DNA from: a bacterium
GTDB taxonomy: Bacteria; Patescibacteriota; Minisyncoccia; Sungbacterales; HO2-52-23
Assembly: GCA_030697525.1 (NCBI GenBank)
Contig: JAUYPW010000013.1
Location: 2,293 to 66,292, forward strand
Direction of reading: 5' to 3'
Length of the DNA stretch: 64,000 nucleotides
In this document: positions 39,972 to 59,897 of the stretch, one piece after another
How the letters are laid out: each line of letters opens with the position of its first letter
Numbering within the stretch: position 1 is the first letter of the stretch
Notes under the pieces: model-generated
Told to the model about the DNA's origin: nothing
Databases searched by the model: none
Seen by the model: the letters and a program-made list of their open reading frames with translations, nothing else
Translations under genes and position numbers: made by a program

Positions 39972-39973
39972 AT

Positions 39974-40951: not shown

Positions 40952-43503
40952 TTTTCCACCCAGTAAGGATTCTCTACCTGCTTGTTATTTAAGAGTTTTT
41001 TGGCAGATATCCTGCCTTGTTCTAGTAAAGATGGGTAGCTGAATTCAATCAAGTTTTTTCCGGCAGGTACTAGGACAGCCTGATACAAATAATTGGCGGT
41101 GTAGAGATTGGTTTCTTTGCCATTTATCGATGCGCGCCAAAACGGATATTTATTCTCGCTAAACACCACGAAACGGGCATTTTTGGTAACGGTCTCAACC
41201 CGCAATCTCCCCGCTGTGTAGTTTAAAAGTTTAAGAGAGTCGTTTTTATCCCCCTTTCCGTATTGTACTGGCAAGACATCATCTTTTTTCCTTTCTAGAA
41301 GAGTGGTCTCATTGAAATCATCAACAGTCTTAATTACATCCAGAGCTAATTTTTCATCCGACTCGGTCCATATTATTTCTTTGGCGAAATACCACCGAGG
41401 CATAAAATCCGGATTTTGATATATATAGATAGGAACCTTCCCGTCCAATATATGGGTAGTAAATATTTTCTTCCATTTGCCAGTGAGCTCAAAAGGGGAC
41501 AGAACATATTTTACATTTAGCATACCCAGAATAGTAGTTCCTTTTTCGCTGAAGTTTTTTATGTAAGCAGTGAATGGGGTAGTGAGAGTAAAATCTTGTT
41601 TTGTTTCAACACTTTGCTGGCGGGCCGTGTAGTATAGATTGATCATGCGGCGCAAGGCGAGGGCTTGATGATTATAAAAAGCATCGAGATCGTATAAGAC
41701 ATTAAGGTTGTCATCCATCATCTCATAATAAAACCACTGTTTATTATTCGGGTTTACAATGTCTGTATTATATTTTTCAGCAATCTCGGCAACATATTGG
41801 TCCGGAGTATAGAGAAATATTCTATAGGGTTGGATTGCTTGAGCGGTATACTGTGTTAGAGGTAGAGAATTGCTTCGATATGATTCTGTGGCATGGAGAA
41901 ATCTGGCAGTAGCCGGAGGATTCTTTATGAATTCCACAGGGGGACCCTTAAGAATATCTTTCCAGACCACAATCGAGCCGAGGAATGTGATAAATATAGA
42001 ACCCCACAGCCATTTTTGCCAAGAAATTAATCCATATTTTCCCAAGGTAAGAAATAGAATGGTTACTATCCAAAGAGTAAAAATAAAAATAGTTTGAGGT
42101 TCTGTAAAAGAGAATTTACTCACCACGCTTGTGGCAATGTTTTTTACAAGCCCTTTATAATAGATATCCGATCTCAAGAAAACCCTATCCGGGGTATTTT
42201 TAAAGTGTTCTACTCCATATTCAGTTAAAGCTGTAGTTATGGATTGCTGGTAAATAGTTACCACAACACTTGTTATGGTTATAGTGATAAGTACCCCCCA
42301 GAGAATTTTAAGCAAAACGGCGCTTCTCTTGGCTCGAAAAAATATTTTTATGTAATCCAGGGAGTGGGCCGCTGTAAGTGATAAGGAAAAAACAATTACA
42401 AAAGACCATTTCCATTGGCCGCCAAACCAGTTTAGTACTGGCAGTTGGTGAAGTAGCCAGAAAAGAGGTGAATATTTTATGGCAATAAGTAGGAACATTA
42501 CCCCCAGCCAAAAGAAGAATCTAAAAACCCCTTTATTTTTACGATAAGTAAAAATACTGACCAAAACCAATAGAAATGGCAGCGTACCGATATATAGCAC
42601 TATATCTTGATCGCCAAGCGCCAAAAAAGGCATAGTCTCGCCATAGTACACAAAAGAGTTGGGATGGATCATACGTAGGAAGTGAGAAAGAGTTATCGGC
42701 ATCATGGCCGCGTTTGATATACCCCCACTTCGGGCGGAGTAGGATATAAAATTCAATATAGAGAGGAACCATGGAAGGAGTATTACTATACTCATAATGA
42801 CCCCGCCTAGCAGGAGCAGTAAGTTTTTTAGTTTTTTCTTGGTTGCACCTCCGCTAAACAAGAGATACAGGGTGAATGATCCTGTTGCCACAAGAGCATA
42901 AACGGCCATCTCTGACCACCCCCCAACCCACACATAGAGCATTAAGGGTAACCACAACCAAAACCATCTTCTTCGGCCCTCCATTATTTTTTTACAAATC
43001 AAAAAAGAGAGCGGCAAAAAAGGCATGAGCGCGGCGATGCCTGTGACATCTAGGTATTTGATGGATACGCCGCTGAATGAATAGGCTAGGGTTCCGACCA
43101 AACTAGCTGGTTTACTTAGTCCCAGATTCCGAGCCAGAAAATAAAAACTTCCCGCGTTAGCCAAAAAGAAAAATAAAATAAGAAGGTTGTTGGCGGTGAA
43201 AGGATTTAAGAATCCGATAGTCGCGAGAAAAAGCGGATTTAAGAATCCATCCAAGGTAAGAGCAATTGGATAACCGGAGTTAAATGCTGGCCACCAATTT
43301 GGGAGTATGCCCAGATCATAGAAAAAAAATCGCATTACTTTAAGATATCCGTAGTGATAAGCGCCGATAAACTGCAAAGGAAAAATGTGTTTTCCGGAGA
43401 GTATTGGCCAAAACAAAAATAAAGCCCCAGTCGTTATAATAAGCGCTGGGCCAGCCTTAATTACAAAGTTTTTTATTCTATCTTTTACCACAATGTGCAT
43501 CAT
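40948..43503 (-). CDS. large polytopic membrane protein, YfhO-like (GT-C superfamily candidate; extracytoplasmic glycosyltransferase)
   Basis: It is 851 aa, with an N-terminal ~500 aa of multiple TM helices and a C-terminal ~300-aa soluble domain. The size and topology match the YfhO family; there is no direct motif proof. Confidence 0.5.
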   Translation of the reverse strand: MMHIVVKDRIKNFVIKAGPALIITTGALFLFWPILSGKHIFPLQFIGAYHYGYLKVMRFFFYDLGILPNWWPAFNSGYPIALTLDGFLNPLFLATIGFLNPFTANNLLILFFFLANAGSFYFLARNLGLSKPASLVGTLAYSFSGVSIKYLDVTGIAALMPFLPLSFLICKKIMEGRRRWFWLWLPLMLYVWVGGWSEMAVYALVATGSFTLYLLFSGGATKKKLKNLLLLLGGVIMSIVILLPWFLSILNFISYSARSGGISNAAMMPITLSHFLRMIHPNSFVYYGETMPFLALGDQDIVLYIGTLPFLLVLVSIFTYRKNKGVFRFFFWLGVMFLLIAIKYSPLFWLLHQLPVLNWFGGQWKWSFVIVFSLSLTAAHSLDYIKIFFRAKRSAVLLKILWGVLITITITSVVVTIYQQSITTALTEYGVEHFKNTPDRVFLRSDIYYKGLVKNIATSVVSKFSFTEPQTIFIFTLWIVTILFLTLGKYGLISWQKWLWGSIFITFLGSIVVWKDILKGPPVEFIKNPPATARFLHATESYRSNSLPLTQYTAQAIQPYRIFLYTPDQYVAEIAEKYNTDIVNPNNKQWFYYEMMDDNLNVLYDLDAFYNHQALALRRMINLYYTARQQSVETKQDFTLTTPFTAYIKNFSEKGTTILGMLNVKYVLSPFELTGKWKKIFTTHILDGKVPIYIYQNPDFMPRWYFAKEIIWTESDEKLALDVIKTVDDFNETTLLERKKDDVLPVQYGKGDKNDSLKLLNYTAGRLRVETVTKNARFVVFSENKYPFWRASINGKETNLYTANYLYQAVLVPAGKNLIEFSYPSLLEQGRISAKKLLNNKQVENPYWVEN

Positions 43504-43511
43504 ATACTAGT

Positions 43512-44300
43512 ATGCCCAAAAAACATTTACATGACAAGTTTTCAAATAAAAGAATTATCGCGCGACTGGACATAAAAGGTGGGAATGTAGTAAAGCCCGT
43601 GCATACCGAAGCCTTACGTATTGTTGGAAAACCTAGAGAACGAGCAGAACTTTACTATAAGCAAGGTATTGATGAGATTGTGTATATGGATATAGTGGCG
43701 AGTCTCTACGGTCGCAATCTGGATTTTGATCTTCTGCGGTCAGTGGCAGAAAATATTTTTGTTCCCCTAACGGTGGGAGGCGGTATAAGAACTATCAAAG
43801 ATATCAATGAAGCTCTTAGGTCTGGGGCGGATAAGGTAGCGATAAATACTTACGCCATTGGCAACCCGAATTTTTTAGAAAAGGCTATCCACGAGTTTGG
43901 CTCGCAATGCATTGTTCTATCTATCGAGGCAAAGAAACAGGCAAACGGGCATTGGGAGGCGTATACAGATGGTGGACGCGAAAGGACGGGTGTAGATGTG
44001 GTGGAATGGGCCAGGCAGGGAATAAAAAGGGGGGTGGGTGAATTACTCATAACTTCCATTGATCGTGATGGCACAAGACAGGGATACGACCTAGATTTGA
44101 TAAAACGCATATCTTCCCTTTCTCCTATTCCAGTTATCGCTTATGGAGGTGCCGGAAAGCCTGAAGATATGGGGGAAGTAATAAAAAAAGCTAGGGCTGA
44201 TGCGGTGGCTGCAGCTTCAATTTTTCATTATGATTTATGTTCTGTGCGGGAGATAAAGAAACATTTAAATAGTATTGGAGTATATACCAGGACCTTATGA
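43512..44300 (+). CDS. HisF-like cyclase subunit of imidazole-glycerol-phosphate-synthase family (WbuZ-type, glycan amidation-associated)
   Basis: IIARLDIKGGNVVKPVHTEAL...GIDEIVYMDIVAS...PLTVGGGIRT is HisF-like. It is adjacent to a HisH-like gene and a WbuX-like gene. Confidence 0.8.
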   Translation: MPKKHLHDKFSNKRIIARLDIKGGNVVKPVHTEALRIVGKPRERAELYYKQGIDEIVYMDIVASLYGRNLDFDLLRSVAENIFVPLTVGGGIRTIKDINEALRSGADKVAINTYAIGNPNFLEKAIHEFGSQCIVLSIEAKKQANGHWEAYTDGGRERTGVDVVEWARQGIKRGVGELLITSIDRDGTRQGYDLDLIKRISSLSPIPVIAYGGAGKPEDMGEVIKKARADAVAAASIFHYDLCSVREIKKHLNSIGVYTRTL

Positions 44301-44944
44301 GCAAAAAAAAAATATCTCCCAATATAGTAATCGTAGACTATGGTGTGGGTAATTTGCATAGTCTGTGTCAGGCTTTTAAGCATTCGGGTATTGTGCCGTT
44401 AGTTACATACGACCCAGAGACCATAAAAAGATCTGATGCCGTAGTGCTTCCGGGTGTTGGTTCATTTGAGGCTGGTATGTGTGGTTTAAAAAAACGAAAA
44501 CTAATCGATACAATTGTAACTGCGAGCATTAATCAAAAACCAATTTTGGGTATATGTCTTGGGGCTCAGGTAATGCTGGATGTAGGTTACGAGTTCGGAA
44601 CTTTTAATGGCCTTGGTCTTATACCCGGCAAAGTGATCCGTTTCCCAAAACTAAATAGTGAGAAGATACCTCATGTGGGATGGAATTCTGTATATAAACC
44701 CACTCACATCTCTTGGAAAGGTACTATATTGCAGGGACTGAAAAATGAATTCGAAACATATTTCGTACATTCTTATGTCCTGGTCCCTAGTGATAAAAAG
44801 TATATTTATGGACTGACTTCCTATGGCGGTCATGAATTTTGTTCTGTCATCAAAAAAGGCAACACATATGGCTGCCAATTCCATCCTGAAAAGAGCGGTC
44901 CTATGGGTCTATCCATCATTGATAGGTTTATTAAAAGTATCTAA
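44297..44944 (+). CDS. HisH-like class I glutamine amidotransferase (WbuY-type)
   Basis: IVIVDYGVGNLHSLCQAF...LPGVGSF...ILGICLGAQ contains the catalytic Cys and a downstream His. ATGA start/stop overlap. Confidence 0.8.
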   Translation: MSKKKISPNIVIVDYGVGNLHSLCQAFKHSGIVPLVTYDPETIKRSDAVVLPGVGSFEAGMCGLKKRKLIDTIVTASINQKPILGICLGAQVMLDVGYEFGTFNGLGLIPGKVIRFPKLNSEKIPHVGWNSVYKPTHISWKGTILQGLKNEFETYFVHSYVLVPSDKKYIYGLTSYGGHEFCSVIKKGNTYGCQFHPEKSGPMGLSIIDRFIKSI

Positions 44945-44954
44945 AAATATTTAA

Positions 44955-46139
44955 ATGATTAAAACCTTAGATAAACAACTAATCAGTCAACCGACCGATG
45001 TTCGTTTTTGCACAAAATGCGTTGTCTCCAATCAGAGACCAAGAATTACGTTTAACAAAGATGGAGTTTGCAGCGCTTGTGATTATGCTCATCGCAAGCA
45101 TTATGTAATTGATTGGAAAAAACGGGAGAAAGAACTGTCGGCACTTTGCGCAAGATACCGTTCCAAAAACGGCGAGTTTGATGTGGTGGTGCCTGGTAGC
45201 GGGGGTAAGGACAGTAGTTACACGGCTCATATATTGAAGACTAAGTACAATATGCATCCGCTTGTTGTTACTTGGGCTCCCTTTGCCTATACCGATATTG
45301 GTTGGAAAAATTTTGAGAATTTCATAAAGTCTGGATTCACGGTTTTAAATTGTTTTCCGGACGGCAAACTACACAGAAAACTTGCTCGGATTGCCTTTGA
45401 GCTCAAGGGTGATGCATGGGAACCATTTGCGTTTGGTCAAAAGGCATACGCATTTCATATAGCAGTAAAATGGGGTATTCCTTTGATTTTTTATGGAGAA
45501 AACGGCGAGGTGGAATATGGAGGATCTTTGAAAAATGCTGATGTACCCCATGAGTCTGTGTATGATTGGGATAAATTATATTATAAAGGTGCGGGTGTCG
45601 ACAGACTTCTTATGGAAGGAAAGAAAATGGGACTGATTACCCCCAAGGAGGTTAAAGATAGGTCTTTTGATTTTTATCGCCCGCCATCCAAAAAAGAGAT
45701 AGAAAAATTGGGCGTTCAGATGCATTGGTTATCATATTATAGAAAGTGGGTGCCACAAGAAAATTTTTATTATGCTCAAAAACACACCGGTTTTACTGCC
45801 AACGAGGAGGGCCGATCTGAAGGTACTTATTCCAAATATGCCAGTCTTGATGATCAGACCGATGGCTTTCATTTTTATATGGCCTTTATTAAGTTTGGTA
45901 TTGGACGGGCAACCTCTGACGCTGCTCACGAAATAAGAGATGGTCATATAACCAGAGAGGAGGGTGTTTCTTTGGTCAAAAGATATGATGGCGAATTTCC
46001 TAAAAAATATTTTAGAGAATTTCTTGCTTATCTAAATATCACTGAAAATCATTTCTGGAAGATGGTTGATTCGTATCGCAAACCTCATTTGTGGAAAAAG
46101 GTTGGTGGAGAATGGAAATTAAAGCACGGAATCAATTAA
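44955..46139 (+). CDS. N-acetyl sugar amidotransferase (WbuX/PseA-like, PP-loop ATP pyrophosphatase)
   Basis: The N-terminal zinc ribbon is CTKCVVSNQRP...CSACDY. The PP-loop is VVVPGSGGKDSSY. Confidence 0.75.
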   Translation: MIKTLDKQLISQPTDVRFCTKCVVSNQRPRITFNKDGVCSACDYAHRKHYVIDWKKREKELSALCARYRSKNGEFDVVVPGSGGKDSSYTAHILKTKYNMHPLVVTWAPFAYTDIGWKNFENFIKSGFTVLNCFPDGKLHRKLARIAFELKGDAWEPFAFGQKAYAFHIAVKWGIPLIFYGENGEVEYGGSLKNADVPHESVYDWDKLYYKGAGVDRLLMEGKKMGLITPKEVKDRSFDFYRPPSKKEIEKLGVQMHWLSYYRKWVPQENFYYAQKHTGFTANEEGRSEGTYSKYASLDDQTDGFHFYMAFIKFGIGRATSDAAHEIRDGHITREEGVSLVKRYDGEFPKKYFREFLAYLNITENHFWKMVDSYRKPHLWKKVGGEWKLKHGIN

Positions 46140-46868
46140 ATGAAAAAATTTACCCAAAAAGGTCTAGTCATAATTCCAGCTCGGGGCGGATCCAAAAGGA
46201 TAAAAAATAAAAATATAAAAAATTTTCTTGGCGATCCTCTTATTGCTTACACAATCAAGCAGGCAAAACAATTAAAAATGGCTGATAGGGTTATTGTTGA
46301 CACTGATTCACCCCAAATAGCCAAGGTAGCTAGGCGTTATGGTGCGGAAGTGCCATTTTTACGTCCGGCGAATCTTGCCCAAGATAATTCTTTAGTGATT
46401 AATAGTGTTATTTATATCCTGCAGAGATTAAAGAAAGAGGAAAATTATATACCAGATTATATTATTATACTTCAAACAACCTCACCACTTCGAGAGATGA
46501 AAGATATTGAGAGTTGTTGGAAATTATTTAAAGATACGGACGCAACGACAGTGCTTACGGTTTGCGAAACTCATCCGAGATCTTATCGGCTTACTCGCGA
46601 AAATAATTTAATTTTACTTAACGGCTCTGAGAAGTATTCCACCAATGTACAAGCTTGGAATAAGCGCTATATTCTCAACGGTTGTTTCGTATATTTTGTA
46701 GAAACAGCAGCTTTACTAAGAGAGAAGGTTATCATAACCAGAAAAACTAAGGCTGTTGTATGCGACAAGTGGCGTTCGGTTGATCTAGATAATCCGGAAG
46801 ATTGGGTAATCGCGGAATTGCTTTATAGAGAGAGAAAGTCTGTTACTAAGAAGATAAAATCCATATGA
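46140..46868 (+). CDS. CMP-nonulosonic acid synthetase (acylneuraminate cytidylyltransferase family; NeuA/LegF/PseF-like)
   Basis: LVIIPARGGSKRIKNKNIKNFLGDPLIAYTI matches the CMP-NeuAc synthetase N-terminal motif. Confidence 0.75.
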   Translation: MKKFTQKGLVIIPARGGSKRIKNKNIKNFLGDPLIAYTIKQAKQLKMADRVIVDTDSPQIAKVARRYGAEVPFLRPANLAQDNSLVINSVIYILQRLKKEENYIPDYIIILQTTSPLREMKDIESCWKLFKDTDATTVLTVCETHPRSYRLTRENNLILLNGSEKYSTNVQAWNKRYILNGCFVYFVETAALLREKVIITRKTKAVVCDKWRSVDLDNPEDWVIAELLYRERKSVTKKIKSI

Positions 46869-47842
46869 ATTTAAGATTTTTAATTGTCGGCCTCGGTTCT
46901 ATGGGAAAGCGGCGTATTCGTAACCTGCTTTTTAATGGTGAGAGTGCTATTACTGGTTTTGATATTTTGCCGGAAAGGTGTCATGAGGCAGAAAAAAAAT
47001 ATGGAATAAAAATAATAAACAGGTTTAAAAACATAGCACCAAAGGACTTTGATGTCATGATAATTTCTACATCCCCAGAATTCCACGGAAACTATATTCG
47101 GTACGCTCTTAAGCACAAAAAACATTTTTTTGTTGAGCATCCCACCAACGCTGATGGTTATAAAAATATTTTTGGAAACAAAGATTCTGATACGGTAAAA
47201 GCTCCTTCGTGCACTCTACGATTCTACCGACCTATTTTGGCGATAAAAAAAATAATTGAGGAAGGGAAGATCGGAAAAATATTATCATTCCAATATCACA
47301 TGGGGCAATATCTTCCCGATTGGCATCCGTGGGAAGATTATCGAAAAGTTTATTTCTCTAAGAAAGAAACTGGTGCGTGTCGTGAGATGCTTCCTTTCGA
47401 ATTAATTTGGCTGAATTGGGTTTTGGGTTCCAAAGTAAAAGAAGCTCGCGGTTTTATACGGAAAGTATCAGAGCTAGATATGAAAGCGGAAGATGTGGTG
47501 ACCGCCAGTGTGCTTTACGAAAATAACATAACAGGGAATATCATGATTGATGTTGTTTCCAGAAAACCTTTCAGAACCTTACGAATTATGGGTTCCAAAG
47601 GGGTTTTGGATTGGGAAAAATTTGATTCAAACTTAAGACTATACGATGCCAAATCCCAAGAAACCAAAACCATATCAGTGCCCAAAGGTCATCCCGAAAC
47701 AGGCTATGTAAATGAGGAGGAAATGTACCAAAAAGAGATAAAGGCTTTTCTTGACGCTGTTTACGGCAAGGCAAAATATCCTTTTACTTTTGAGGAAAAC
47801 TTATTGAATCTTAAGGTGCTTTTTGGGCTTCTGCGCAAGTAG
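46865..47842 (+). CDS. Gfo/Idh/MocA-family NAD(P)-dependent oxidoreductase
   Basis: The N-terminal Rossmann region is LRFLIVGLGSMGKRRIRNLL. The protein is 325 aa. Confidence 0.65.
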   Translation: MNLRFLIVGLGSMGKRRIRNLLFNGESAITGFDILPERCHEAEKKYGIKIINRFKNIAPKDFDVMIISTSPEFHGNYIRYALKHKKHFFVEHPTNADGYKNIFGNKDSDTVKAPSCTLRFYRPILAIKKIIEEGKIGKILSFQYHMGQYLPDWHPWEDYRKVYFSKKETGACREMLPFELIWLNWVLGSKVKEARGFIRKVSELDMKAEDVVTASVLYENNITGNIMIDVVSRKPFRTLRIMGSKGVLDWEKFDSNLRLYDAKSQETKTISVPKGHPETGYVNEEEMYQKEIKAFLDAVYGKAKYPFTFEENLLNLKVLFGLLRK

Positions 47843-47873
47843 TTACTTCCATTTTTAAGCAGGGGTTATAATA

Positions 47874-48145
47874 GGAGACCAGGATTCGAACTAACATCAA
47901 TTTAGTGAATCAATTCCCGTCCCAGATTCAAGGCGCGAGAAGCGAAGTGTATCTTTAGATACACGAGCGACGAGAAACGCAGAAGATGGGCGGGAATTGA
48001 TTCACCCGAAGGGAAGAGAGAATTTGGCCAATTTCTTCGTCACTCCTCGGAGAGGTGCTGGTCAGCACGATCTCCTTGTCGTTCCTAGAACTTGGCTCAA
48101 ATTCTCTCTTCTAAACTCTGATGCTAGTTCGAATCCTGGTCTCCA
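47874..48145. repeat. 272-nt nested perfect-palindrome element (22-bp terminal inverted repeats plus at least five internal perfect hairpins) directly abutting the neuB-like start codon
   Basis: The terminal inverted repeats are GGAGACCAGGATTCGAACTAAC and GCTAGTTCGAATCCTGGTCTCC. Internal perfect pairs are GTGAATCAATTCCCG/CGGGAATTGATTCAC, GTGTATCT-tt-AGATACAC, GAAGAGAGAATTTG/CAAATTCTCTCTTC, CCTC-gga-GAGG and GTGCTG-gt-CAGCAC. Confidence 0.6.
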
Positions 48146-48151
48146 AAGTAT

Positions 48152-49207
48152 ATGGCGCAAAGAGTCTTAAAGATAGGAAGAAAATTGGTTGGTTCAGGCC
48201 AGCCCGTTTTTATAATCGCCGAGGCTGGAGTAAATCACAACGGCAGATTGGATTTGGCTTTGCGGCTTGTAGATGCTGCGGCTGGTGCCGGAGCCGATGC
48301 TATAAAATTCCAGACCTTCAAAGCGGAGGGGGTTGTCACTAAAGGCGGAGAATTAGTTGCCTATCAAAAAAATAATATAAGAAAATTCAAAAATCAGCTT
48401 GACATGCTTAGAAGTTTGGAAATAAAAGAATCGTTCTACAAATCTATTATCAAGCGATGCGAGAAAAAAAATATAATTTTTTTATCTACACCGCACGGTG
48501 GTTTCCAGAGCGTTGATTTTTTAGAAAAGTTTAAGGTATCAGCATTCAAATTCGGATCAGGCGATATTACCAATCTTCCTCTTTTGGCGTATGCCGCGCA
48601 TTTTAAAAAACCGATAATATTGGGAACCGGTATGTCTAATATGCAGGAGGTGAGAGATGCCATCCGGTGCATCAAGAAAGCTGGTAATGACAAAATTGTA
48701 GTTCTACACTGTACCACCAGCTATCCCTGCCCACATGATGAAGTTAATCTTGCGGCTATGAGAAGTATGGCAAAAGAGCTGGATGTTCTGATCGGCTATT
48801 CAGATCACACCCATGGTATCCAGGCGGCGGTTATGGCTACTACCCTAGGCGCTAGTGTAATTGAAAAACATCTCACTTTGGATAAAAATTTTTCTGGACC
48901 TGATCATAAAGCCTCTGTTGAGCCAAAAGAATTTAAAGAGATGGTTGAATGGTTGCGTAATATACCAATCGTCTTGGGAAGTTCTTCTAAGAAGCCCACA
49001 GAACAGGAGTTGCTACACCGTCATCTGGTTAGAAAGAGTTTGGTTGCAGATAAAGATATTATGAAAGGAGAAATTTTTACGGAAAATAATTTAGCCATAA
49101 AACGTCCCGGAACAGGTATGATGCCGGAGCGATATTTTTCAATCATCGGTAAAAGGGCAAAAAGAAATATAAGTAAAGATACAATATTGAGACAAAATGA
49201 TTATTGA
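48152..49207 (+). CDS. N-acylneuraminate-9-phosphate / nonulosonic acid synthase (NeuB/LegI/PseI family) with C-terminal SAF domain
   Basis: VFIIAEAGVNHNGRLDLALRLVDAAAGAGADAIKFQTF is canonical NeuB. The C-terminal SAF/antifreeze-like domain is present. Confidence 0.85.
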   Translation: MAQRVLKIGRKLVGSGQPVFIIAEAGVNHNGRLDLALRLVDAAAGAGADAIKFQTFKAEGVVTKGGELVAYQKNNIRKFKNQLDMLRSLEIKESFYKSIIKRCEKKNIIFLSTPHGGFQSVDFLEKFKVSAFKFGSGDITNLPLLAYAAHFKKPIILGTGMSNMQEVRDAIRCIKKAGNDKIVVLHCTTSYPCPHDEVNLAAMRSMAKELDVLIGYSDHTHGIQAAVMATTLGASVIEKHLTLDKNFSGPDHKASVEPKEFKEMVEWLRNIPIVLGSSSKKPTEQELLHRHLVRKSLVADKDIMKGEIFTENNLAIKRPGTGMMPERYFSIIGKRAKRNISKDTILRQNDY

Positions 49208-50345
49208 TAAACAAAATAAAAAAAATATCGCCTATATCTCTGGCAGCAGGGCGGATTTTGGAATTATGACCCCCGTGCTACGTGCCATAAAAAATAGTAA
49301 AAAGTTAAATCTTCAACTATATGCTACCGGTATGCATCTTATGAATGATTTTGGCGGGACGATAAATGAAATAAAGAAAGAATTCAGTGGGGTAGTTCCG
49401 ATTAAAACTTGGTTTAAAGGAAATGAAAGAAAATATACAGCTCGTTTTATGGGTTCTTTCTTGGAGAAAGTGGTCACGGTATTAGAAAAATATAAACCCG
49501 ACTTTCTGCTTGTAATGGGGGATCGCCCGGAGATGTTTTGTGTTGCCTTAGCGGGTCTTTACATGGGGATTCCTGTGGCTCATGTCCATGGAGGGGAGCG
49601 CACTACAACTGTTGATGAGAGCGCTCGTCATGCCATAACTAGACTAGCGCATCTACATTTTCCCGCCACCAAAGAATCGGCAGAAAGAATTAGAAAAATG
49701 GGGGAGGAAAAGTGGAGGATAACAACAGTTGGGGCTCCTGCGCTGGATACCATCATAAAGGAAAAGCTACCGACACGTGACGAATTATTTAGGTCATTAA
49801 ATATAAACCCGGCAGAAAAAATTGCGTTAGTTACTTTTCATCCGGTTAGTGAAAAGTGGCGTCTGTCCGGTCAGCAAATGGGAGAAATTATGGCCGCAAT
49901 CAAAGGTCTAAATATGGTTACTGTGATTATCTATCCCAATACTGATGCGGGTAGTCATTTTATCATCAATGAAATAGAAAAAGAAAAAAATAACCCCAGA
50001 TTTAGAATATATAAAAACTTGCCGTACAAACATTTTCTTGCTCTGGAGCGGGAAGCAAGTGTTTGGATTGGTAACAGCAGTGCTGCCATGATAGAATCCG
50101 CTTACTTTGGCACCCCAGTTGTAAATGTGGGTGACCGCCAGCGCAACCGAGAAAGGGGTGATAATGTGATAGATGTAAGGTGTATAAAAAAAGATGTTGT
50201 TTCAGCAATTAGGAAAAGTATTTTCAAAGAAAAAAGATACGGTAAAAAAATATGGGGAGATGGACGGGCCAGTAAGCGCATCGTCAAAATCCTAGAGGAT
50301 CTAAAAATTACAAATCGTTTATTAGAAAAACAAATAACTTATTAA
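49197..50345 (+). CDS. hydrolysing UDP/GDP-N-acetylhexosamine 2-epimerase (NeuC/LegG family)
   Basis: AYISGSRADFGIMTPVL, GDRPEMF and HVHGGERTT are conserved motifs of the UDP-GlcNAc 2-epimerase family. Confidence 0.8.
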   Translation: MIIDKQNKKNIAYISGSRADFGIMTPVLRAIKNSKKLNLQLYATGMHLMNDFGGTINEIKKEFSGVVPIKTWFKGNERKYTARFMGSFLEKVVTVLEKYKPDFLLVMGDRPEMFCVALAGLYMGIPVAHVHGGERTTTVDESARHAITRLAHLHFPATKESAERIRKMGEEKWRITTVGAPALDTIIKEKLPTRDELFRSLNINPAEKIALVTFHPVSEKWRLSGQQMGEIMAAIKGLNMVTVIIYPNTDAGSHFIINEIEKEKNNPRFRIYKNLPYKHFLALEREASVWIGNSSAAMIESAYFGTPVVNVGDRQRNRERGDNVIDVRCIKKDVVSAIRKSIFKEKRYGKKIWGDGRASKRIVKILEDLKITNRLLEKQITY

Positions 50346-50350
50346 GTTAT

Positions 50351-50962
50351 ATGAAAGAAGTAATTATTATTGGGGCTGGGCAAAATGGTCAGGTCGTAAA
50401 AAATATTATTTCTCTGGATAAAAATACCAAAGTAATTGGTTTTCTTGATGATGCTAAACATGGCCGGGAAATTGTTGGCCTGGTGGCTGATTTTTTAAAG
50501 TTTAAAAAAAGAGGATGTGAATTTTTTATCTCCGTTGGGGATAACGAAGTAAGATCAAAAATTTTCCTAAAACTGCAAAAAAATAATGTAAAGTTTATAA
50601 ACGCAATTCATCCCTCTTCTTGTATAGAATCGTCAGCCAGCTTGGGCAGAAATATTATGATTGGCGCCTTTTCGTACCTTAATGTCAACTGCGTAGTGGG
50701 TGACAATACATTCATAAATAATGGTTGTATTATAGAGCACGATGTTAACATTGGGGCACATTGTCATCTAGCACCCGGGGTGGTTACGGCGGGCGAGACA
50801 GTAATTGGAGATAGGGTTTTTGTGGGTATAGGCGCTATGTTGCGGGATAGGATTAGAATTGGAAATAATTCTGTTATTGGTGCTGGTTCCAATGTTGTGT
50901 CTGATACTAAGGCCGGTGCAATGTATTATGGTAATCCGGCAAAATTTGTAAAAAAATTATGA
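50351..50962 (+). CDS. hexapeptide-repeat sugar N-acetyltransferase (NeuD/PglD/LegH-like)
   Basis: The N-terminal Rossmann-like region is VIIIGAGQNGQVVKNII...VIGFLDD, followed by LbH repeats (IGDRVFVGIGAMLRDRIRIGNNSVIGAGSNV). Confidence 0.7.
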   Translation: MKEVIIIGAGQNGQVVKNIISLDKNTKVIGFLDDAKHGREIVGLVADFLKFKKRGCEFFISVGDNEVRSKIFLKLQKNNVKFINAIHPSSCIESSASLGRNIMIGAFSYLNVNCVVGDNTFINNGCIIEHDVNIGAHCHLAPGVVTAGETVIGDRVFVGIGAMLRDRIRIGNNSVIGAGSNVVSDTKAGAMYYGNPAKFVKKL

Positions 50963-51456
50963 AGTACAAATATTGCTCGCTGTGCGGGAACACCCTGCGT
51001 CAGCGAAAAGACGGAAGGTTAGCCTGCACTAAATGCGATTTTGTTAATTATCAAAATCCTCGCCCGACAGTAACTGTTGTGGTTCTGCATAACAACAAAC
51101 TGCTTCTTACCAAAAGAGCCAGAGAGCCTTTCCAAGACTGGTGGGATTTGCCGGGTGGTTTTATTGAAAAGGGGGAGAGGCCGGAGGAAGCGGCATGTAG
51201 GGAATTGTGGGAAGAGACTCGACTCAAAATAAAAATAAAAAGTTTGTTTGGAATATACCCTGGAGTTTATCCCTCTAAGAAAGAACCTTTTTCAGTTTTA
51301 AGTATTGTTTATATCGCAGAGTGTAAAACCGCGAACTTAAAAGCTTTGGACGATGTTGCTGAAGGTAAATGGTTTGAGAAAGAAAAGATTCCCACAAAAA
51401 TTGCTTTTGACAGTAACCAAAAGGTTATTAAAGAATTCCTACGTTTATGGAAATAA
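50959..51456 (+). CDS. NUDIX hydrolase with N-terminal zinc ribbon
   Basis: The zinc ribbon is CSLCGN...CTKCDF. The Nudix box is GGFIEKGERPEEAACRELWEETRL. Confidence 0.7.
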   Translation: MKYKYCSLCGNTLRQRKDGRLACTKCDFVNYQNPRPTVTVVVLHNNKLLLTKRAREPFQDWWDLPGGFIEKGERPEEAACRELWEETRLKIKIKSLFGIYPGVYPSKKEPFSVLSIVYIAECKTANLKALDDVAEGKWFEKEKIPTKIAFDSNQKVIKEFLRLWK

Positions 51457-52124
51457 AGGATTTTGACTATTATTTTGACTTAAGTAAATTTGCGCATAAA
51501 AATCTTTTCGCTAACTGCGAATATGTATTTGATTTCTTAAAACATCTCGAAGGTTATATAAGGGCCAACCTGAATTCTGCCGTTTTGGGCAAGGTTTTAT
51601 CTGGAGCTATTGTTGAGGATAATGTGTATATAGGCAGGAACAGCGTGGTTCAACCCGGAGCTTGGGTACGAGGACCTTCTATAATTGGAGACAATTGTGA
51701 AATACGACATGGGGCTTATGTTGGGTCCAATACACTCACCGGTAACGGGGTTATTATTGGACACGCCTCGGAAGTGAGCAACTCTGTTTTTTTGGATAAT
51801 GCTCGGGCTCCGCATTTTGCGTTTGTGGGGCATAGTATATTGGGTAATCGAGTAAACTTAGGAGCTGGTACCAAGCTATCTAATCTTAAAATTACTGCAA
51901 AAGAAATAGAACTAGATAATATTAAAACCGGCCTTCTGAAGCTAGGAGCAATAATAGGGGACGACAGTTCTTTGGGGTGCAACACTGTTACCCAACCAGC
52001 GACGTTTCTTGGGAAAAAAGTTTTCAGTTATCCCGAAACTTTACTGCGAGGCTTTATCCCCTCCAGCACTATTATCAAACTTAGGCAGCAGCAGGAAATC
52101 ACACCATTTAATGAAAAGATCTAA
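51447..52124 (+). CDS. left-handed beta-helix (hexapeptide-repeat) protein, acyl/acetyltransferase-like
   Basis: Repeated [LIV]-G-x-x-x-x-[LIV] hexapeptides run through VYIGRNSVVQPGAWVRGPSIIGDNCEIRHGAYVGSNTLTGNGVIIGHASEV. There is no NTP-transferase domain. Confidence 0.5.
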   Translation: MEIKDFDYYFDLSKFAHKNLFANCEYVFDFLKHLEGYIRANLNSAVLGKVLSGAIVEDNVYIGRNSVVQPGAWVRGPSIIGDNCEIRHGAYVGSNTLTGNGVIIGHASEVSNSVFLDNARAPHFAFVGHSILGNRVNLGAGTKLSNLKITAKEIELDNIKTGLLKLGAIIGDDSSLGCNTVTQPATFLGKKVFSYPETLLRGFIPSSTIIKLRQQQEITPFNEKI

Positions 52125-53259
52125 TGGCAATAAAAAATATCCTCTGGCAAAGCCAAACATCGGCCGAGAAGAAATTGCCAATGTTACAAAAGTATTACAT
52201 TCCGGGATATTGAGTCTCGGAAATTTTGCAAAAAGATTTGAAAATGAATTTGCGAGAAAGATAGGAACCAAACATGCCTGTGCGGTGTCCAGCGGTACCG
52301 CCGGGTTACATTTGGCGCTACTTGCGGCAGGAATTAAAGATGGAGATGAAGTCATAACTACTCCTTTTTCTTTTGTGGCATCTGCCAATAGCATTCTCTA
52401 TGTTGGAGCAAAACCGGTGTTTGTGGATATTGAACCAGATACTTATAATATTGATCCTGAAAAAATTGAGAAAGTAATTACTCCAAAAACCAAAGCCATC
52501 TTGGTGGTTCATATATTTGGACAGGCCTGTAACATGACCCCCATACTAAGGATTGCCCAAAAACATAAACTGAAAATTATTGAAGATGCGTGTGAATCTT
52601 TGCTAGCTGAATACAAAAATAAAAAGACGGGTACTTTTGGGGAATCGGCTGTATTTGCTTTTTATCCTAATAAGCAAATTACCACCGGTGAGGGTGGCAT
52701 GATTATCACCAATAATCAATCAATAAACGCTCTGTGCCGATCTTTAAGAAACCAAGGCCGTTCTCCGGATATGAAGTGGCTAAACCACGAAAGATTGGGT
52801 TATAACTATAGGATGGACGAGATGAGCGCAGCTTTGGGACTTGCCCAGCTTGGCAAGGTGGACAAGATACTCAAAGAGCGAGCCAATGTAGCATACTTAT
52901 ATCACAAGCACCTGCTTCCGTATAAAAGTATTCTGTCAATTCCGAAAATTGCCGCACATAATACTCATACCTGGTTTGTATATGTGGTAAGAATATTAAA
53001 TCGCGATGTAGATAGGGATAAGGTGATTACTGATTTAGAAAAAATTGGTATAGAGACAAAACCATATTTACCATCTATACACCTGTTCAGTTTTTATAAA
53101 AATAAGTTTGGGTATAAAAAAGGCGATTTTCCGATAGCAGAGGAAGTAAGCCAGAATACCTTAGCGCTACCTTTTTATATAGGGATTAAAGAAAAGGATA
53201 TAATTAAAATAGTTGTAGCTTTGATTAAGGTTATCGAAAAAAATGGAAAAGGAATTTAA
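52111..53259 (+). CDS. DegT-family PLP-dependent aminotransferase (LegC/PglE/PseC-like)
   Basis: From MKRSNGNKKYPLAKPNIGREEIANVTKVLHSGILSLG.F...FE.EFA it shows typical aminotransferase class-V/DegT features. The ATG at 52111 overlaps the upstream stop by 14 nt. The longer ORF from 52009 is rejected because it lies wholly inside the upstream gene. Confidence 0.8.
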   Translation: MKRSNGNKKYPLAKPNIGREEIANVTKVLHSGILSLGNFAKRFENEFARKIGTKHACAVSSGTAGLHLALLAAGIKDGDEVITTPFSFVASANSILYVGAKPVFVDIEPDTYNIDPEKIEKVITPKTKAILVVHIFGQACNMTPILRIAQKHKLKIIEDACESLLAEYKNKKTGTFGESAVFAFYPNKQITTGEGGMIITNNQSINALCRSLRNQGRSPDMKWLNHERLGYNYRMDEMSAALGLAQLGKVDKILKERANVAYLYHKHLLPYKSILSIPKIAAHNTHTWFVYVVRILNRDVDRDKVITDLEKIGIETKPYLPSIHLFSFYKNKFGYKKGDFPIAEEVSQNTLALPFYIGIKEKDIIKIVVALIKVIEKNGKGI

Positions 53260-54262
53260 AGGAAAAAGAATTTTAGTCACCGGAGGAACGGGCTCTATTG
53301 GCTCGGCAATTGTAAAAGAGCTTTTGAGATATAAACCCTATCAAATTAGGGTTTATAGCCGTGACGAGACCAAACAGTTTGAGTTAAGCCACGAATTGGA
53401 TCCTAAAGCTCCAGTCAATTTTTTGATAGGCGATATTCGGGATAAAGAGCGTCTTAATATGGCTATGGAAAATATTGACATAGTCTTTCATGCCGCGGCC
53501 ATGAAGCATGTGGCTGCCTGCGAGAAAAATCCCTTTGAGGCGGTAAAGACCAATATCCAAGGTACGCAAAACGTCATTGATTGCGCTTTTACTAATGGGG
53601 TAGATAAAGTTATAGGTATTTCAACCGACAAGGCGGCCGATCCGACAAATGTCATGGGGTGTACTAAGTTACTAGCGGAGAAAATAATGTTGGCTACTTA
53701 TTTTTACAAAGGCAAGAAGAAAACTAGGTTTTGTTTCGTTCGTTTTGGCAATGTATTGGGATCACGGGGGTCGGTTGTGCCGCTTTTTATAAAGCAGGCA
53801 AAAAGTGGTGGGCCGGTAACAATTACTGACCCTGCCATGACCAGATTTTTTATGTCTGTGTCACAGGCCGTAAACCTGATTTTCAAGGCAACCAAACTAA
53901 TGAAAGATCGGGAAATTTTTGTTTTAAAAATGCCAGTAGCCAATATAAAAGATTTAGCTCTGGTAGTGGTGGATTCAATAAAAGCCAAAAATAATAGCGT
54001 AGACAAGAGAATAGAAATTAAGGTGATTGGTAAAAAAAACGGGGAGAGAGTGCATGAGAAGCTACTAACGAGAGAAGAATCGGAAGTTGCTTTAGAAACG
54101 GACGAAATGTTTGTAATAACCCCAGATTTAAGCGTGGAAAAAAACAGCGCAGGACACAATTCTTATTATAAATCAAAAAAAGCTAAAGTAAGGGAGTATT
54201 CTTCTAAAGATCAATCGCTTCTTTCTCCAGAGGCTATTAAAAAAATACTTCTTGAAATATGA
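53243..54262 (+). CDS. nucleotide-sugar (UDP/GDP-GlcNAc) 4,6-dehydratase, short PseB/LegB/CapD-like SDR
   Basis: KRILVTGGTGSIGSAIVKELLRY is the Gly-rich NAD(P) motif. The protein is ~340 aa, CapD/FlaA1-like. Confidence 0.8.
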   Translation: MEKEFKGKRILVTGGTGSIGSAIVKELLRYKPYQIRVYSRDETKQFELSHELDPKAPVNFLIGDIRDKERLNMAMENIDIVFHAAAMKHVAACEKNPFEAVKTNIQGTQNVIDCAFTNGVDKVIGISTDKAADPTNVMGCTKLLAEKIMLATYFYKGKKKTRFCFVRFGNVLGSRGSVVPLFIKQAKSGGPVTITDPAMTRFFMSVSQAVNLIFKATKLMKDREIFVLKMPVANIKDLALVVVDSIKAKNNSVDKRIEIKVIGKKNGERVHEKLLTREESEVALETDEMFVITPDLSVEKNSAGHNSYYKSKKAKVREYSSKDQSLLSPEAIKKILLEI

Positions 54263-55758
54263 ATGATCGGGTAGCTGACAACAAGGGCGCTTTAGCCAAA
54301 GCGATACACAGTGGCAAATGGATGTTATACGGCACAGCCACACAAAAAATCCTTAGTGTGGCCACTTTTTTTATATTGGCGCGTATTCTCACTCCAGAAC
54401 ACTACGGAATCATTGCTGTGGTATTGATGATTACCTCAACCACCAACCTAATGACTAGCCACGGGCTAGAGATGGCCATCGCTCAACGAGGTGTAGATGT
54501 AGAAAAATATTTGGACTCAATCTGGACCCTCAATATACTACGAGCTCTTGCGCTGGCCATTTTAATCTTTATATTGTCTAAGCCGTTGAGTATTTTTTTC
54601 CATATCCCGACCGCTGTAAATATTCTGCGAGTTGGTGGCCTGTTGTTAATTGCCATCCATTTGATTAATGTTCGTCAGATACACTTTGTTATAAATCTTG
54701 ATTTTAAAAAACTTTTTTGGAGAGATTTTGCCGGACAAATAGCTTACACAATTTCCGCCTTAAGCTGGGCTTTGTTTGTCCAGGCATCAGCCTGGGCGCT
54801 CTTGGTGGGGCATATGGCGCGCCAGATAGTGTCCGATGTGGTTACTTATATTGAATATCCTTGTTGGCCGCGGCTATCTTTCAAATTCCGCCCCCTTTTA
54901 AATTTTATAGGTTATAGCAAGTGGATTAGCGGCCAAGTTGTGCTGGACTACATAACTAATTTTATAGACCCAATTTTTGTGGGCCGTATGCTAGGACCGA
55001 GTAATTTGGGCTTGTACTCCAAAGCCAATGAGCTGGCTTCTACCGCTACCGCTACCCTTTTAAGCATTATGCGCAAAATAAGTTTTTACGCTTATAATAC
55101 TGTCCAGTCTGATCTGCAGAAAATTCAAAAAGGTTTTATCAAGAGTTTAGATGTTATCGGCTTAATAATGTTCCCGTTCAGTTTTTTAATTTTTATAGAA
55201 GGGGAGGCCATAGTCTCTATGTTATTGGGGCAAAGATGGTTATTGCTGGTTGTTCCGCTTAAAATTTTGGCTATAGCTAATTTTTTAGACTCAATATCAG
55301 GCATATTTAACCCAGTCTTTAATATTCTAGGAAAGCCAAAGATTAATGCTTATGCCACACTATTGAGATTAATATCGTCGTTGGCGCTTTTATATTTTGC
55401 CGCTAAATGGTGGGGCATGACGGGGGTTGCCGTAGCCATTCTGATTATGGCTTTTCTGGTTTTGTTGTATAATATTTGGGAATCAATGGCGCTCTTAAAG
55501 CTGGGGTGGCGAAAAGTAATGCCAAGTATTTTACAACCAGTGGTATCTCTCGTGCCGTTGTTTGTTTTATTTTTATTCCTACAAGAATCGATACACAAAA
55601 TAGAAAACGCTTATCTCACTGTTGTTTGGCTGATATTACTTCTTGCGATATACGCGATATCTTTTCTTTTATTGAGTAGATTTTTCAAGCAAGGGCCTCG
55701 TAACACAATAATAGATATACTGGCTGAATTTAAACACAAAGGAGATCTTATATCTTAA
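54259..55758 (+). CDS. wzx: Wzx-like oligosaccharide flippase (MOP superfamily polysaccharide biosynthesis protein)
   Basis: It has 12-14 predicted TM helices. The N-terminus (K..L...SGKWMLYGTATQKILSVATFFILARILTPEHYGIIAV) is typical of PF01943 flippases. Confidence 0.7.
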   Translation: MNDRVADNKGALAKAIHSGKWMLYGTATQKILSVATFFILARILTPEHYGIIAVVLMITSTTNLMTSHGLEMAIAQRGVDVEKYLDSIWTLNILRALALAILIFILSKPLSIFFHIPTAVNILRVGGLLLIAIHLINVRQIHFVINLDFKKLFWRDFAGQIAYTISALSWALFVQASAWALLVGHMARQIVSDVVTYIEYPCWPRLSFKFRPLLNFIGYSKWISGQVVLDYITNFIDPIFVGRMLGPSNLGLYSKANELASTATATLLSIMRKISFYAYNTVQSDLQKIQKGFIKSLDVIGLIMFPFSFLIFIEGEAIVSMLLGQRWLLLVVPLKILAIANFLDSISGIFNPVFNILGKPKINAYATLLRLISSLALLYFAAKWWGMTGVAVAILIMAFLVLLYNIWESMALLKLGWRKVMPSILQPVVSLVPLFVLFLFLQESIHKIENAYLTVVWLILLLAIYAISFLLLSRFFKQGPRNTIIDILAEFKHKGDLIS

Positions 55759-59184: not shown

Positions 59185-59268
59185 AACCTTCTCCTTTCTC
59201 GCAGATTGTCAAAAAACCACCCCAATTATAGTTTTCTTAGAATACATTTTTTATCAAAATTTGTAAAC

Positions 59269-59867: not shown

Positions 59868-59897
59868 ATGAAACTATAAAGTTAGAAAACTAAAAAA

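Follow-up and report, generated by a model that had tools for sequence, protein, structure and literature searches.

Discussion of sialic-acid-like sugars centres mostly on pathogens, in which they figure as host-mimicry or flagellar factors. Among the described legionaminic acid (Leg) systems, that of Bacillus subtilis starts with SpsM, a dehydratase shown genetically to open a UDP-linked Leg pathway and complemented by PglF but not by PseB or LegB (PMC7439481). For the O-antigen of Legionella pneumophila, a route from UDP-N,N'-diacetylbacillosamine (UDP-diNAcBac) to CMP-Leg via NeuC, NeuB and NeuA is given by Glaze et al. 2008, as cited in PMC6137143. The presence of the 2-epimerase LegG together with the absence of PseG is the logic used in the literature to call Leg rather than pseudaminic acid (Pse) (PMC5378307). 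Here we analyse a 64,000-nucleotide stretch of contig JAUYPW010000013.1 (assembly GCA_030697525.1), hereafter the window, which carries a string of 13 plus-strand genes at 43512-55758 in the list of open reading frames (ORFs). We read this string, with a probability of about 0.78, as a two-part operon for a CMP-activated 5,7-diamino-3,5,7,9-tetradeoxy-nonulosonic acid of the legionaminic type, made by a UDP-linked route. We infer the UDP carrier, the order of the steps and the D-glycero-D-galacto stereochemistry.

Pfam and NCBIfam back the family call of every gene of the string. All genes that an earlier note on this DNA had listed exist on the plus strand where it had placed them, with the qualification that the Wzx flippase, which it counted within a cluster ending at 54262, is present but lies beyond that end (Table 1). 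The junctions are overlaps of 4 to 17 nt or gaps of 0 to 10 nt, the sole exception being a 309-nt gap at 47843-48151. Six core enzymes stand in this one string with NeuC among them, so that the set for a 2-epimerase-dependent (Leg-type) 5,7-diamino nonulosonate is complete, as the note had claimed.

In the proposed pathway, the SpsM-like dehydratase would convert UDP-N-acetylglucosamine (UDP-GlcNAc) into its 4-keto-6-deoxy form, the DegT protein would aminate C4, and the PglD/NeuD-like enzyme, or possibly the GlmU-type one, would acetylate the amine to give UDP-diNAcBac. NeuC would then take off UDP and invert C2, NeuB would condense the product with phosphoenolpyruvate, and the cytidylyltransferase would form the CMP-sugar. 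The HisH-like, HisF-like and WbuX proteins would turn one N-acetyl group into acetamidino, and Wzx would export the lipid-linked glycan.

Legionaminic versus pseudaminic acid

Because a NeuB tree did not resolve all its references, Leg and Pse enzymes were discriminated by NCBIfam equivalog cut-offs, with two sister metagenome loci of the Candidate Phyla Radiation (CPR), L104 and L107, as internal controls. The window misses all four Pse cut-offs by 30 to 100 bits (PseB 330.5 bits for a cut-off of 407.75; PseC, PseI and PseF in Table 1), whereas CPR Pse enzymes pass: L104 and L107 score 439 for PseB, 452-474 for PseC and 459-461 for PseI. For PseF, L107 reaches 291, and the L104 cytidylyltransferase has no match at E<=1e-40. 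Within 9-kb flanks, neither L104 nor L107 showed a homologue of NeuC. A further locus, L081 (Buchananbacteria type), behaves like the window in this comparison. The WbuX, NeuB_NnaB, NeuC_NnaA and NeuD models all score above their curated cut-offs in the string, and none of the ORFs at 43512-55758 has a GNAT-family (PseH) or PseG-type (GT-B) match in Pfam or NCBIfam.

The dehydratase carries the motif STDKAADPTNVMGCTK, i.e. T-x9-M-x3-K (STDK...M...K), with the same Met as SpsM. Across 51 loci, Met or Leu occupies this position in 35 of the 38 that carry NeuC, and Tyr in 8 of the 13 without NeuC, including every locus scored as Pse-type. The earlier note had called the enzyme PseB/LegB-type; it is indeed a PF02719 4,6-dehydratase, but it lies below the PseB cut-off and is not of the Campylobacter jejuni LegB type (TIGR04180, 65.6 bits for a cut-off of 475). 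It scores 271 against the FnlA model (cut-off 730). Its matches in the PDB are 6BWC (289 bits), FlaA1/PseB (250), CapE (246) and PglF (166).

The missed cut-offs, the SpsM-type Met motif and NeuC sustain the claim of the earlier note that the sugar is of the Leg rather than the Pse type, and the Pse pathway is excluded. A pseudaminic acid, or a mixed C5-inverted isomer, would ask the PF02719 enzyme to act as an inverting PseB-like dehydratase, the Nudix and left-handed beta-helix (LbH) proteins of the string to stand in for PseG and PseH, and NeuC to be auxiliary, which we hold to be highly improbable. Going by name, NCBIfam does rank PseB, PseC and PseF first for the dehydratase, DegT and cytidylyltransferase, but these are models whose cut-offs the window fails, and NeuB lies above the NeuB_NnaB cut-off and below that of PseI. 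The closest solved dehydratases (6BWC, FlaA1, CapE) do belong to the C5-inverting or Pse-linked group; SpsM, however, is a CapE-like enzyme with the Met motif and can supply a Leg pathway (PMC7439481), and the Met/Leu motif follows NeuC loci while the Tyr motif follows Pse loci. The Nudix-LbH pair also occurs in true Pse-type CPR loci that show no PseG match among the ORFs tested, yet the window has a strong NeuC, and the Pse route includes no 2-epimerisation (PMC5378307).

DegT matches GDP-perosamine synthase in the PDB with 295 bits, far above PglE (179) and PseC (157), and the PglD/NeuD-like enzyme matches the perosamine N-acetyltransferase PerB with 110.6 bits and PglD with 84 bits. Both perosamine enzymes act on a D-series sugar with an equatorial C4 amine, so that this closeness fits a bacillosamine-type intermediate, if weakly. 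A GDP-linked route of the Campylobacter type was rejected on the LegB score given above and on the lack of a PtmE-type guanylyltransferase gene in the operon: there is no NTP_transferase gene at 43512-55758, and the nearest one (25900-26577) belongs to a heptose-type module.

Conserved gene order and the separation from sialic acid

Gene neighbourhoods were compared in 80 NeuB-anchored loci from the one-genome-per-species GTDB; 166 loci were fetched in all. The closest NeuB proteins in GTDB come from Zambryski-, Yanofsky-, Kaiser- and Magasanikbacteria and from metagenome-assembled genomes of the "Patescibacteria group" (56-62% identity), followed by Thermoplasmatales and DPANN archaea, and the window NeuB falls inside a CPR-only clade of the neighbour-joining tree. 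The 12 CPR loci with the closest NeuB all have NeuC and DegT, and 11 have the dehydratase, in the same order as in the window; their DegT proteins are 55-68% identical to that of the window. Twelve CPR genomes as well as archaea of the DPANN and Thermoplasmatales share the order NeuB-NeuC-(acyltransferase)-DegT-dehydratase, and the arrangement is therefore no chance juxtaposition. NeuB homologues without DegT and dehydratase nearby, for example in L025, lie outside the CPR clade.

The named members of the tight Nudix and LbH clades are all CPR as well. The CPR-type genome proposed in the earlier note is thus well supported by the nearest homologues, NeuB, Nudix and LbH falling in CPR-specific clades, although no marker gene enters into this assignment. 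Identical proteins are in GenBank (MDP3710345.1, MDP3710346.1), where the window proteins already stand under automatic names.

This synteny bears on a second rival, in which the string makes two products: NeuC, NeuB and the cytidylyltransferase would yield CMP-N-acetylneuraminic acid (CMP-Neu5Ac), and the dehydratase, DegT and acetyltransferase would yield UDP-diNAcBac or a related 4-amino-6-deoxy-hexosamine amidinated by WbuXYZ. The E. coli O145 cluster combines Neu5Ac genes, an FnlA-type dehydratase and wbuXYZ. NeuB is above the cut-off of TIGR03569, named 'N-acetylneuraminate synthase', and NeuC above that of TIGR03568, but neither model splits Neu from Leg; by identity, the best solved relative of NeuB is the Leg synthase SpsE of B. 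subtilis (228.6 bits, 40%), ahead of PseI and the true Neu5Ac synthase NeuB of Neisseria meningitidis (34% each). NeuC scores slightly higher against human GNE than against a Leg epimerase, and WbuX trios act on non-nonulosonate sugars elsewhere (PMC11340318). However, the gene order with its overlapping junctions is kept in the 12 CPR genomes, sister loci with the same Nudix-LbH pair fill the same positions with unambiguous PseB and PseC, which are nonulosonate precursor enzymes, and the NeuB homologues that lack this context, such as that of L025, branch outside the CPR clade. The Met motif of the dehydratase is also CapE/FnlA-like, but the FnlA score is far below its cut-off, and neither an FnlB-type reductase nor a non-hydrolysing FnlC epimerase was found (wecB 98.6). 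We consider two separate products improbable.

On the same counts, an N-acetylfucosamine (FucNAc) pathway was rejected (the FnlA score, no FnlB, no FnlC). A plain Neu5Ac neuABC cluster is likewise disfavoured: the dehydratase and DegT genes overlap within the same gene string and co-occur with NeuB/NeuC in 11 to 12 of the 12 closest CPR loci.

The putative acetamidino trio

The earlier note had also recognised an acetamidino trio of HisF-like, HisH-like and WbuX proteins. All three are present with their motifs intact and WbuX is above its cut-off, but the HisF-like protein falls below that of WbuZ. WbuX has the PP-loop SGGKDS at residue 82 as well as a CxxC...CxxC motif in its N-terminal part, and the HisH-like protein has both the GICLGAQ Cys and the FHPE His/Glu motifs. 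Compared with Thermotoga maritima HisF, whose reference sequence we supplied ourselves, the HisF-like protein keeps the gate residues E46, K99 and E167 and the catalytic D11, and has Glu in place of D130. It scores 208.8 against the AglZ/HisF2 model (cut-off 310).

The role of WbuZ is favoured for the HisF-like protein because its gene context adjoins WbuX, and we propose that the barrel is the ammonia-channel subunit of a predicted acetamidino system. From what is known of these families, the HisH-like protein would hydrolyse glutamine, and the ammonia would travel through the HisF-like barrel to WbuX, where ATP would activate the N-acetyl carbonyl and ammonia would displace the activated oxygen to give the acetamidino group. 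True histidine biosynthesis is unlikely for the pair, which directly precedes WbuX in a window that contains no other his gene, although the profile scores would allow it.

In 17 of the 80 NeuB-anchored loci, a WbuX homologue occurs no more than 10 kb from NeuB, often together with HisH/HisF, and the trio is again nearby in several of the Nudix-LbH loci. The nonulosonate is the presumed bearer of the acetamidino group by adjacency alone, WbuX abutting the CMP-synthetase gene, which begins at the base right after the WbuX stop codon.

A conserved Nudix-LbH pair

The earlier note had described the Gfo/Idh/MocA oxidoreductase, the Nudix hydrolase and the extra LbH protein as embedded and unexplained. 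The first proves to be a routine companion of such clusters (see below) and the other two a conserved CPR pair. Nudix and LbH gave only weak matches in the 80 NeuB-anchored GTDB loci, and their conservation came from protein and metagenome searches. The LbH protein search returned 1,870 homologues, of which the best, about 80, are stand-alone proteins of 225 aa with 63-73% identity, spanning Buchanan-, Sung-, Taylor- and Magasanikbacteria and Parcubacteria. In contig look-ups and a metagenome scan (loci L081-L112), the LbH gene is immediately preceded by a Nudix gene in every case with upstream sequence, usually with a 10-nt overlap, and the pair almost always adjoins DegT or a PF02719 dehydratase. 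Of the loci that carry it, the window, L081 and L105 are Leg-type, L104 and L107 are Pse-type, and L084 has no NeuB nearby.

The Nudix box is canonical (GX5EX7REUXEEX(R)U), with RE..EE invariant in 63 homologues. Nudix homologues form a closed clade of 50-69% identity, all stand-alone, beyond which identity is 45% at most. A Nudix of the GDP-mannose mannosyl-hydrolase type, which would release free sugar directly, was rejected, as the box is canonical with REx2EE intact. In the LbH protein, the catalytic-His motif PHF is invariant in 81 homologues. Among PDB entries it aligns best with the C-terminal acetyltransferase domain of Sulfolobus ST0452, and it is the counterpart of the C-terminal half of the archaeal bifunctional GlmU. 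Remoter homologues are full-length nucleotidyltransferase-LbH proteins, so that the nucleotidyltransferase half has been lost in CPR, where a Nudix gene stands in front instead. No Nudix-LbH fusion was seen among 70 Nudix homologues and the best 120 of the 1,870 LbH homologues. A 225-aa NTP-transferase at 25900-26577 matches positions 1-224 of the archaeal bifunctional GlmU model with 152 bits, so that counterparts of the two halves of this enzyme are separate genes 25 kb apart in the window (25900-26577 and 51447-52124).

No other acetyltransferase was recognised among the annotated or tested ORFs of L081 and L107, which suggests that the LbH protein is able to fill the role of 4-N-acetyltransferase. 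Pfam, NCBIfam and PDB sequence searches gave no PseG match for the tested ORFs of L104 and L107; these were only part of the ORFs, and absence is not proven, but the result led to the idea that Nudix might be the nucleotide-removal step. As the window has both NeuC and a PglD-like enzyme, the pair would there be redundant, form a branch, or have another function, for example control of the nucleotide-sugar pool.

These observations could be drawn together in an undescribed two-enzyme module of CPR nonulosonate pathways that acts at the sugar-1-phosphate level as a "reverse GlmU", a conjecture that we regard as doubtful and whose chemistry is purely notional. The Nudix protein may split an NDP-4-amino-6-deoxy-hexosamine into NMP and sugar-1-phosphate, which the LbH protein may then N-acetylate; the pair may thus replace PseG and PseH in Pse-type CPR loci, and in Leg-type loci it may provide a second, NeuC-independent branch or a nucleotide-swap step. 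Such a module fits because the pair is conserved with invariant catalytic residues beside DegT/dehydratase in both Pse- and Leg-type loci, and because the LbH protein corresponds to the C-terminal half of a bifunctional enzyme whose nucleotidyltransferase half is replaced by the Nudix gene. In the open-access literature, Nudix was found together with Pse/Leg terms only in a review of nucleotide-sugar dehydratases.

In the slot between NeuC/CMP-synthetase and the Nudix gene, L081 has a PylC-like ATP-grasp protein and an aldo-keto reductase (2955-5503), and L105 has a formyltransferase and a PIG-L deacetylase (6134-7749). These swapped tailoring sets point to diversification of the N-acyl groups of the sugar.

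Evidence against the legionaminic assignment and possible isomers

Several observations weigh against a legionaminic acid bearing an acetamidino group. The earlier note had called for per-gene phylogenies. The window NeuB does fall within the CPR clade and nearer to SpsE by identity, but the neighbour-joining tree had no more than three references with labels (SpsE, PseI and N. meningitidis NeuB) and leaves SpsE, NeuB and a large clade unresolved. The PDB scores of NeuC are practically equal, and hence not discriminating, between the GDP/UDP-diNAcBac hydrolysing 2-epimerase 5XVS (188.7 bits) and the human GNE epimerase domain (195.3). Neither DegT nor the CMP-synthetase reaches any equivalog cut-off, for DegT that of the LegC-family model included (302 for 420). 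The score of the HisF-like protein falls 19 bits short of the WbuZ cut-off and is just as good with the true HisF model. A WbuX/HisF2/HisH trio is also annotated in a polysaccharide cluster of Sphingomonas for which no nonulosonate genes are listed (PMC11340318), so the acceptor in the window could be another N-acetyl sugar of the surrounding 47-kb glycan island. The simple six-step scheme does not account for the presence of two acetyltransferases, nor for that of two enzymes that could remove the nucleotide (NeuC and Nudix). Finally, the current literature holds that Leg/Pse calls from genomes alone are ambiguous and that stereoisomers are not callable from sequence (bioRxiv 10.64898/2026.04.20.719630).

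This last position, shared by reviews of the field, leaves room for a Leg stereoisomer or another acylation (4-epi-Leg, 8-epi-Leg, or a non-acetyl N-acyl group), with Gfo/Idh/MocA, the second LbH protein and Nudix as tailoring enzymes. Three enzymes beyond the canonical six are at hand, and the acyl-transfer slot, swapped as it is in L081 and L105, looks like a hot spot of N-acyl variation. Gfo/Idh/MocA, however, occurs too widely (43 ORFs in 80 loci) to be the mark of a rare isomer, and no dedicated epimerase sets were recognised, no search for them having been made. Such a variant, which would refine the legionaminic reading rather than replace it, is conceivable but on balance rather unlikely.

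Gene features of the operon

The features of the string, together with one protein of the surrounding island, are listed in Table 1.

Table 1. Features of the nonulosonate gene string and an associated protein in the window (NCBIfam cut-offs in brackets after the scores)
Feature	Position	Strand	Supporting evidence
HisF/WbuZ-like (beta/alpha)8 barrel	43512-44300	+	PF00977 223.8 bits; WbuZ TIGR03572 280.8 (299.7); hisF 288.4 (294.55)
HisH/WbuY-like class-I glutaminase	44297-44944	+	PF00117; TIGR01855 201.7 bits (105.4); 4-nt overlap with HisF-like gene
WbuX PP-loop amidotransferase	44955-46139	+	TIGR03573 365.3 bits (203.2)
CMP-nonulosonate synthetase, NeuA/LegF-like, CTP_transf_3	46140-46868	+	PF02348 87.5 bits; PseF model 176.4 (205.7)
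Gfo/Idh/MocA oxidoreductase	46865-47842	+	PF01408, PF22725, PF02894
Nested inverted-repeat element	47874-48144	none	In the only sizeable intergenic gap of the string
NeuB-family nonulosonate synthase, LegI-like	48152-49207	+	TIGR03569 432.7 bits (399.65); PseI model 292.2 (340.25)
NeuC/LegG-type hydrolysing NDP-sugar 2-epimerase	49197-50345	+	TIGR03568 388.3 bits (235.9); wecB 98.6
PglD/NeuD-family LbH N-acetyltransferase, LegH-like (4-amino group)	50351-50962	+	TIGR03570 197.6 bits (160.8); PglD_N domain
Nudix pyrophosphatase with N-terminal zinc ribbon	50959-51456	+	PF00293 82.9 bits
Stand-alone GlmU-type LbH acetyltransferase	51447-52124	+	TIGR03992 positions 218-392, 134.8 bits
DegT-family sugar 4-aminotransferase, LegC/PglE role	52111-53259	+	PF01041 413 bits; PseC 322.1 (423.5); LegC-family 302 (420)
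Soluble PF02719 UDP-GlcNAc 4,6-dehydratase, SpsM/CapE (Met) type	53243-54262	+	PF02719 354.5 bits
Wzx/MOP flippase	54259-55758	+	PF13440 210 bits; NF007773 152.7 bits; about 8 predicted transmembrane segments; 4-nt overlap with dehydratase gene
PF05159 (KpsS/KpsC-like) protein	34690-36204	-	PF05159 45.9 bits

The DegT ORF is listed from a TTG at 52009, the ATG at 52111 being the likelier start. At 43503-43512, a YfhO-like gene on the minus strand and the HisF-like gene diverge with 8 nt between their annotated start codons; either their promoters lie inside coding regions or one start is mis-set. A promoter scan was uninformative (46 matches for 38 expected), and the window contains no tRNA according to ARAGORN and no Rfam match.

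Gfo/Idh/MocA oxidoreductases regularly accompany NeuB/NeuC clusters: the 80 loci contain 43 ORFs homologous to that of the window, the best of them in the CPR loci L007, L004 and L001, where they stand directly upstream of NeuB. In the window, the 271-nt inverted-repeat element lies between the two genes. It has outer arms of 26 nt that are 96% complementary, two long hairpins inside, and a minimum free energy of -142.3 kcal/mol (z = -10.4), and its 3' outer arm resembles the T-arm and acceptor end of a tRNA. No Rfam match at E<=1 and no tRNA (ARAGORN) were found for it, nor a second copy in the window or any in the 166 loci. It could be an insertion similar to miniature inverted-repeat transposable elements or a structured RNA.

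The surrounding glycan island

The operon belongs to a glycan island of about 47 kb (about 10.8-57.2 kb), of which it forms the distal part. The island also contains GT4 and GT2 transferases, an AsnB-type amidotransferase, several methyltransferases, a B12-radical SAM enzyme, a GmhA/HddA/GmhB/HddC-like heptose module, a GDP-mannose dehydratase, a 3'-phosphoadenosine 5'-phosphosulfate (PAPS) synthase fusion with a sulfotransferase, and three GT-C-like membrane proteins.

Homologues of the PF05159 protein stand beside nonulosonate genes in L104 (508 bits, 3816-5342), L005 (447 bits, 4675-6225), L001 (300 bits, 5889-7394), L087 (two copies, 4840-7763), L004 and L074, and we infer that it is a candidate nonulosonate transferase. 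In L104, homologues of the window Gmd (381 bits), GT4 (319) and PF05159 (508) proteins lie within 5.4 kb beside a Pse-type module, which suggests a swap of Pse and Leg cassettes in a similar island.

At 37176-40951, a 931-aa fusion of a pyruvate-kinase barrel, ATP sulfurylase and adenosine 5'-phosphosulfate kinase (PAPS synthase) is directly followed by a sulfotransferase, suggesting a sulfated glycan. The fusion with a kinase barrel is unusual, and one homologue was found, in L017 (546 bits). The module at 22786-29619 includes a GmhA-like isomerase, a GmhB-like phosphatase, a transaldolase/FSA, a second DegT, an NTP-transferase, a GT2, an FAD oxidoreductase and an HddA-like GHMP kinase, and looks like a GDP-heptose-type pathway with an extra amination step. 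Three large polytopic membrane proteins at 30464-32314, 40948-43503 (minus strand) and 55755-57182 (minus strand) have at least 8 to 9 predicted transmembrane segments; one is YfhO-like, one is PMT_2-like (GT-C) and one is without family. They may act outside the membrane as oligosaccharyl or glycosyl transferases.

Directly after the island, the stretch at 57272-61147 has E1 beta and alpha genes of a 2-oxoacid dehydrogenase on the minus strand, with no E2 or E3 recognised among the scanned neighbouring ORFs. Further along the minus strand it has a radical SAM/SPASM protein, with a 169-aa plus-strand ORF without family in between. A part of the E1 subunits and the radical SAM protein in sugar side-chain chemistry is possible.

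The earlier note had proposed S-layer-like neighbours as glycosylation targets, a view that we could not sustain. The secreted proteins in question (784-10875) are 32 to 43 kb away and have signal peptides or N-terminal anchors and PG_binding_1, LTD or PKD domains only. Ser and Thr make up 16-24% of the five that had been called S-layer-like, a domain scan matched no S-layer family in any of them, and nothing ties them to the sugar. After the gene of a 1218-aa surface protein, a structured intergenic region of 414 nt (4441-4854, z about -12) contains a terminator-like hairpin and several palindromes with the motif AACTTAAAA; it has no sequence relation to the element at 47874.

Significance

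Nothing about the pathway type, the amidino trio or the operon logic is new, and with textbook pathway logic the locus does not overturn current knowledge. What is new is modest: Leg- and Pse-type clusters are recurrent in CPR genomes, and a conserved Nudix-LbH pair is embedded in them. We found no open-access paper linking nonulosonic, legionaminic or pseudaminic acid with CPR or Patescibacteria. Together with about a dozen CPR relatives, the window indicates that ultra-small, uncultivated and probably episymbiotic bacteria regularly have Leg- and Pse-type sugars in their surface-glycan repertoire. On a CPR surface, a charged terminal sugar is a plausible determinant of host-cell attachment and of phage recognition. 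For enzymology, the locus offers a compact, probably UDP-linked Leg operon with an amidino system and an uncharacterised conserved Nudix-acetyltransferase pair.

Comparison with known systems

The sps genes of B. subtilis (SpsM, C, D, G, E and F; PMC7439481) offer a UDP-linked route whose first enzyme is, like that of the window, a short soluble PF02719 dehydratase with T-x9-M-x3-K, and they place the sugar on a cell-surface layer of a non-pathogen. They differ in being split over two loci, with no acetamidino trio, Nudix-LbH pair or Gfo/Idh/MocA protein noted; the sequence comparison covered the dehydratase and the synthase.

The L. pneumophila pathway is alike in its UDP-linked precursors and its NeuC/NeuB/NeuA trio, a likeness drawn from the description of the pathway rather than from a sequence comparison. 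Its polymer is a 5-acetamidino-legionaminic acid homopolymer on lipopolysaccharide (LPS), and HisH/HisF-like genes are, we take it, present in the LPS locus. CPR bacteria are generally described as being without an outer membrane, so that the acceptor of the glycan must differ from Legionella LPS.

In C. jejuni, CMP-Leg is made through the same six chemical steps by LegB, C, H, G, I and F together with PtmE, and the amidotransferase PtmG/PseA belongs to the same family as WbuX. Unlike the window, this system uses GDP-linked sugars, its LegB belongs to a different family of short-chain dehydrogenases/reductases (TIGR04180), and its target is flagellin. We know of no HisH/HisF partners adjoining PtmG in C. 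jejuni.

WbuX/Y/Z of E. coli O145 and AglX/Y/Z of Methanococcus maripaludis (TIGR03573, TIGR03572, NF038364) share with the window the three-protein make-up, a WbuX above cut-off, the PP-loop, the glutaminase triad and the gated barrel. These systems amidinate hexosamine derivatives (FucNAc and ManNAc3NAcA), whereas the acceptor in the window would, judging from gene adjacency, be a nonulosonate, and its HisF-like protein is short of the WbuZ cut-off.

Halorubrum sp. PV6 (PMC6137143) has the same gene set, including a NeuD homologue and a GlmU-type 'nucleotidyltransferase' that parallel the two LbH proteins of the window, and its GlmU-type protein was proposed as LegH. There, however, this protein is taken as full-length and bifunctional, without an LbH-only form or Nudix pairing, and the sugar is N-formylated and N-linked.

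In Tannerella forsythia (PMC5378307), the nonulosonate module is likewise exchangeable within a similar glycan locus, with a strain-specific Pse/Leg swap on the S-layer O-glycan. Its Leg route is the GDP-linked one with PtmE, and glycosylation of the S-layer, demonstrated in that species, is conjectured for the window.

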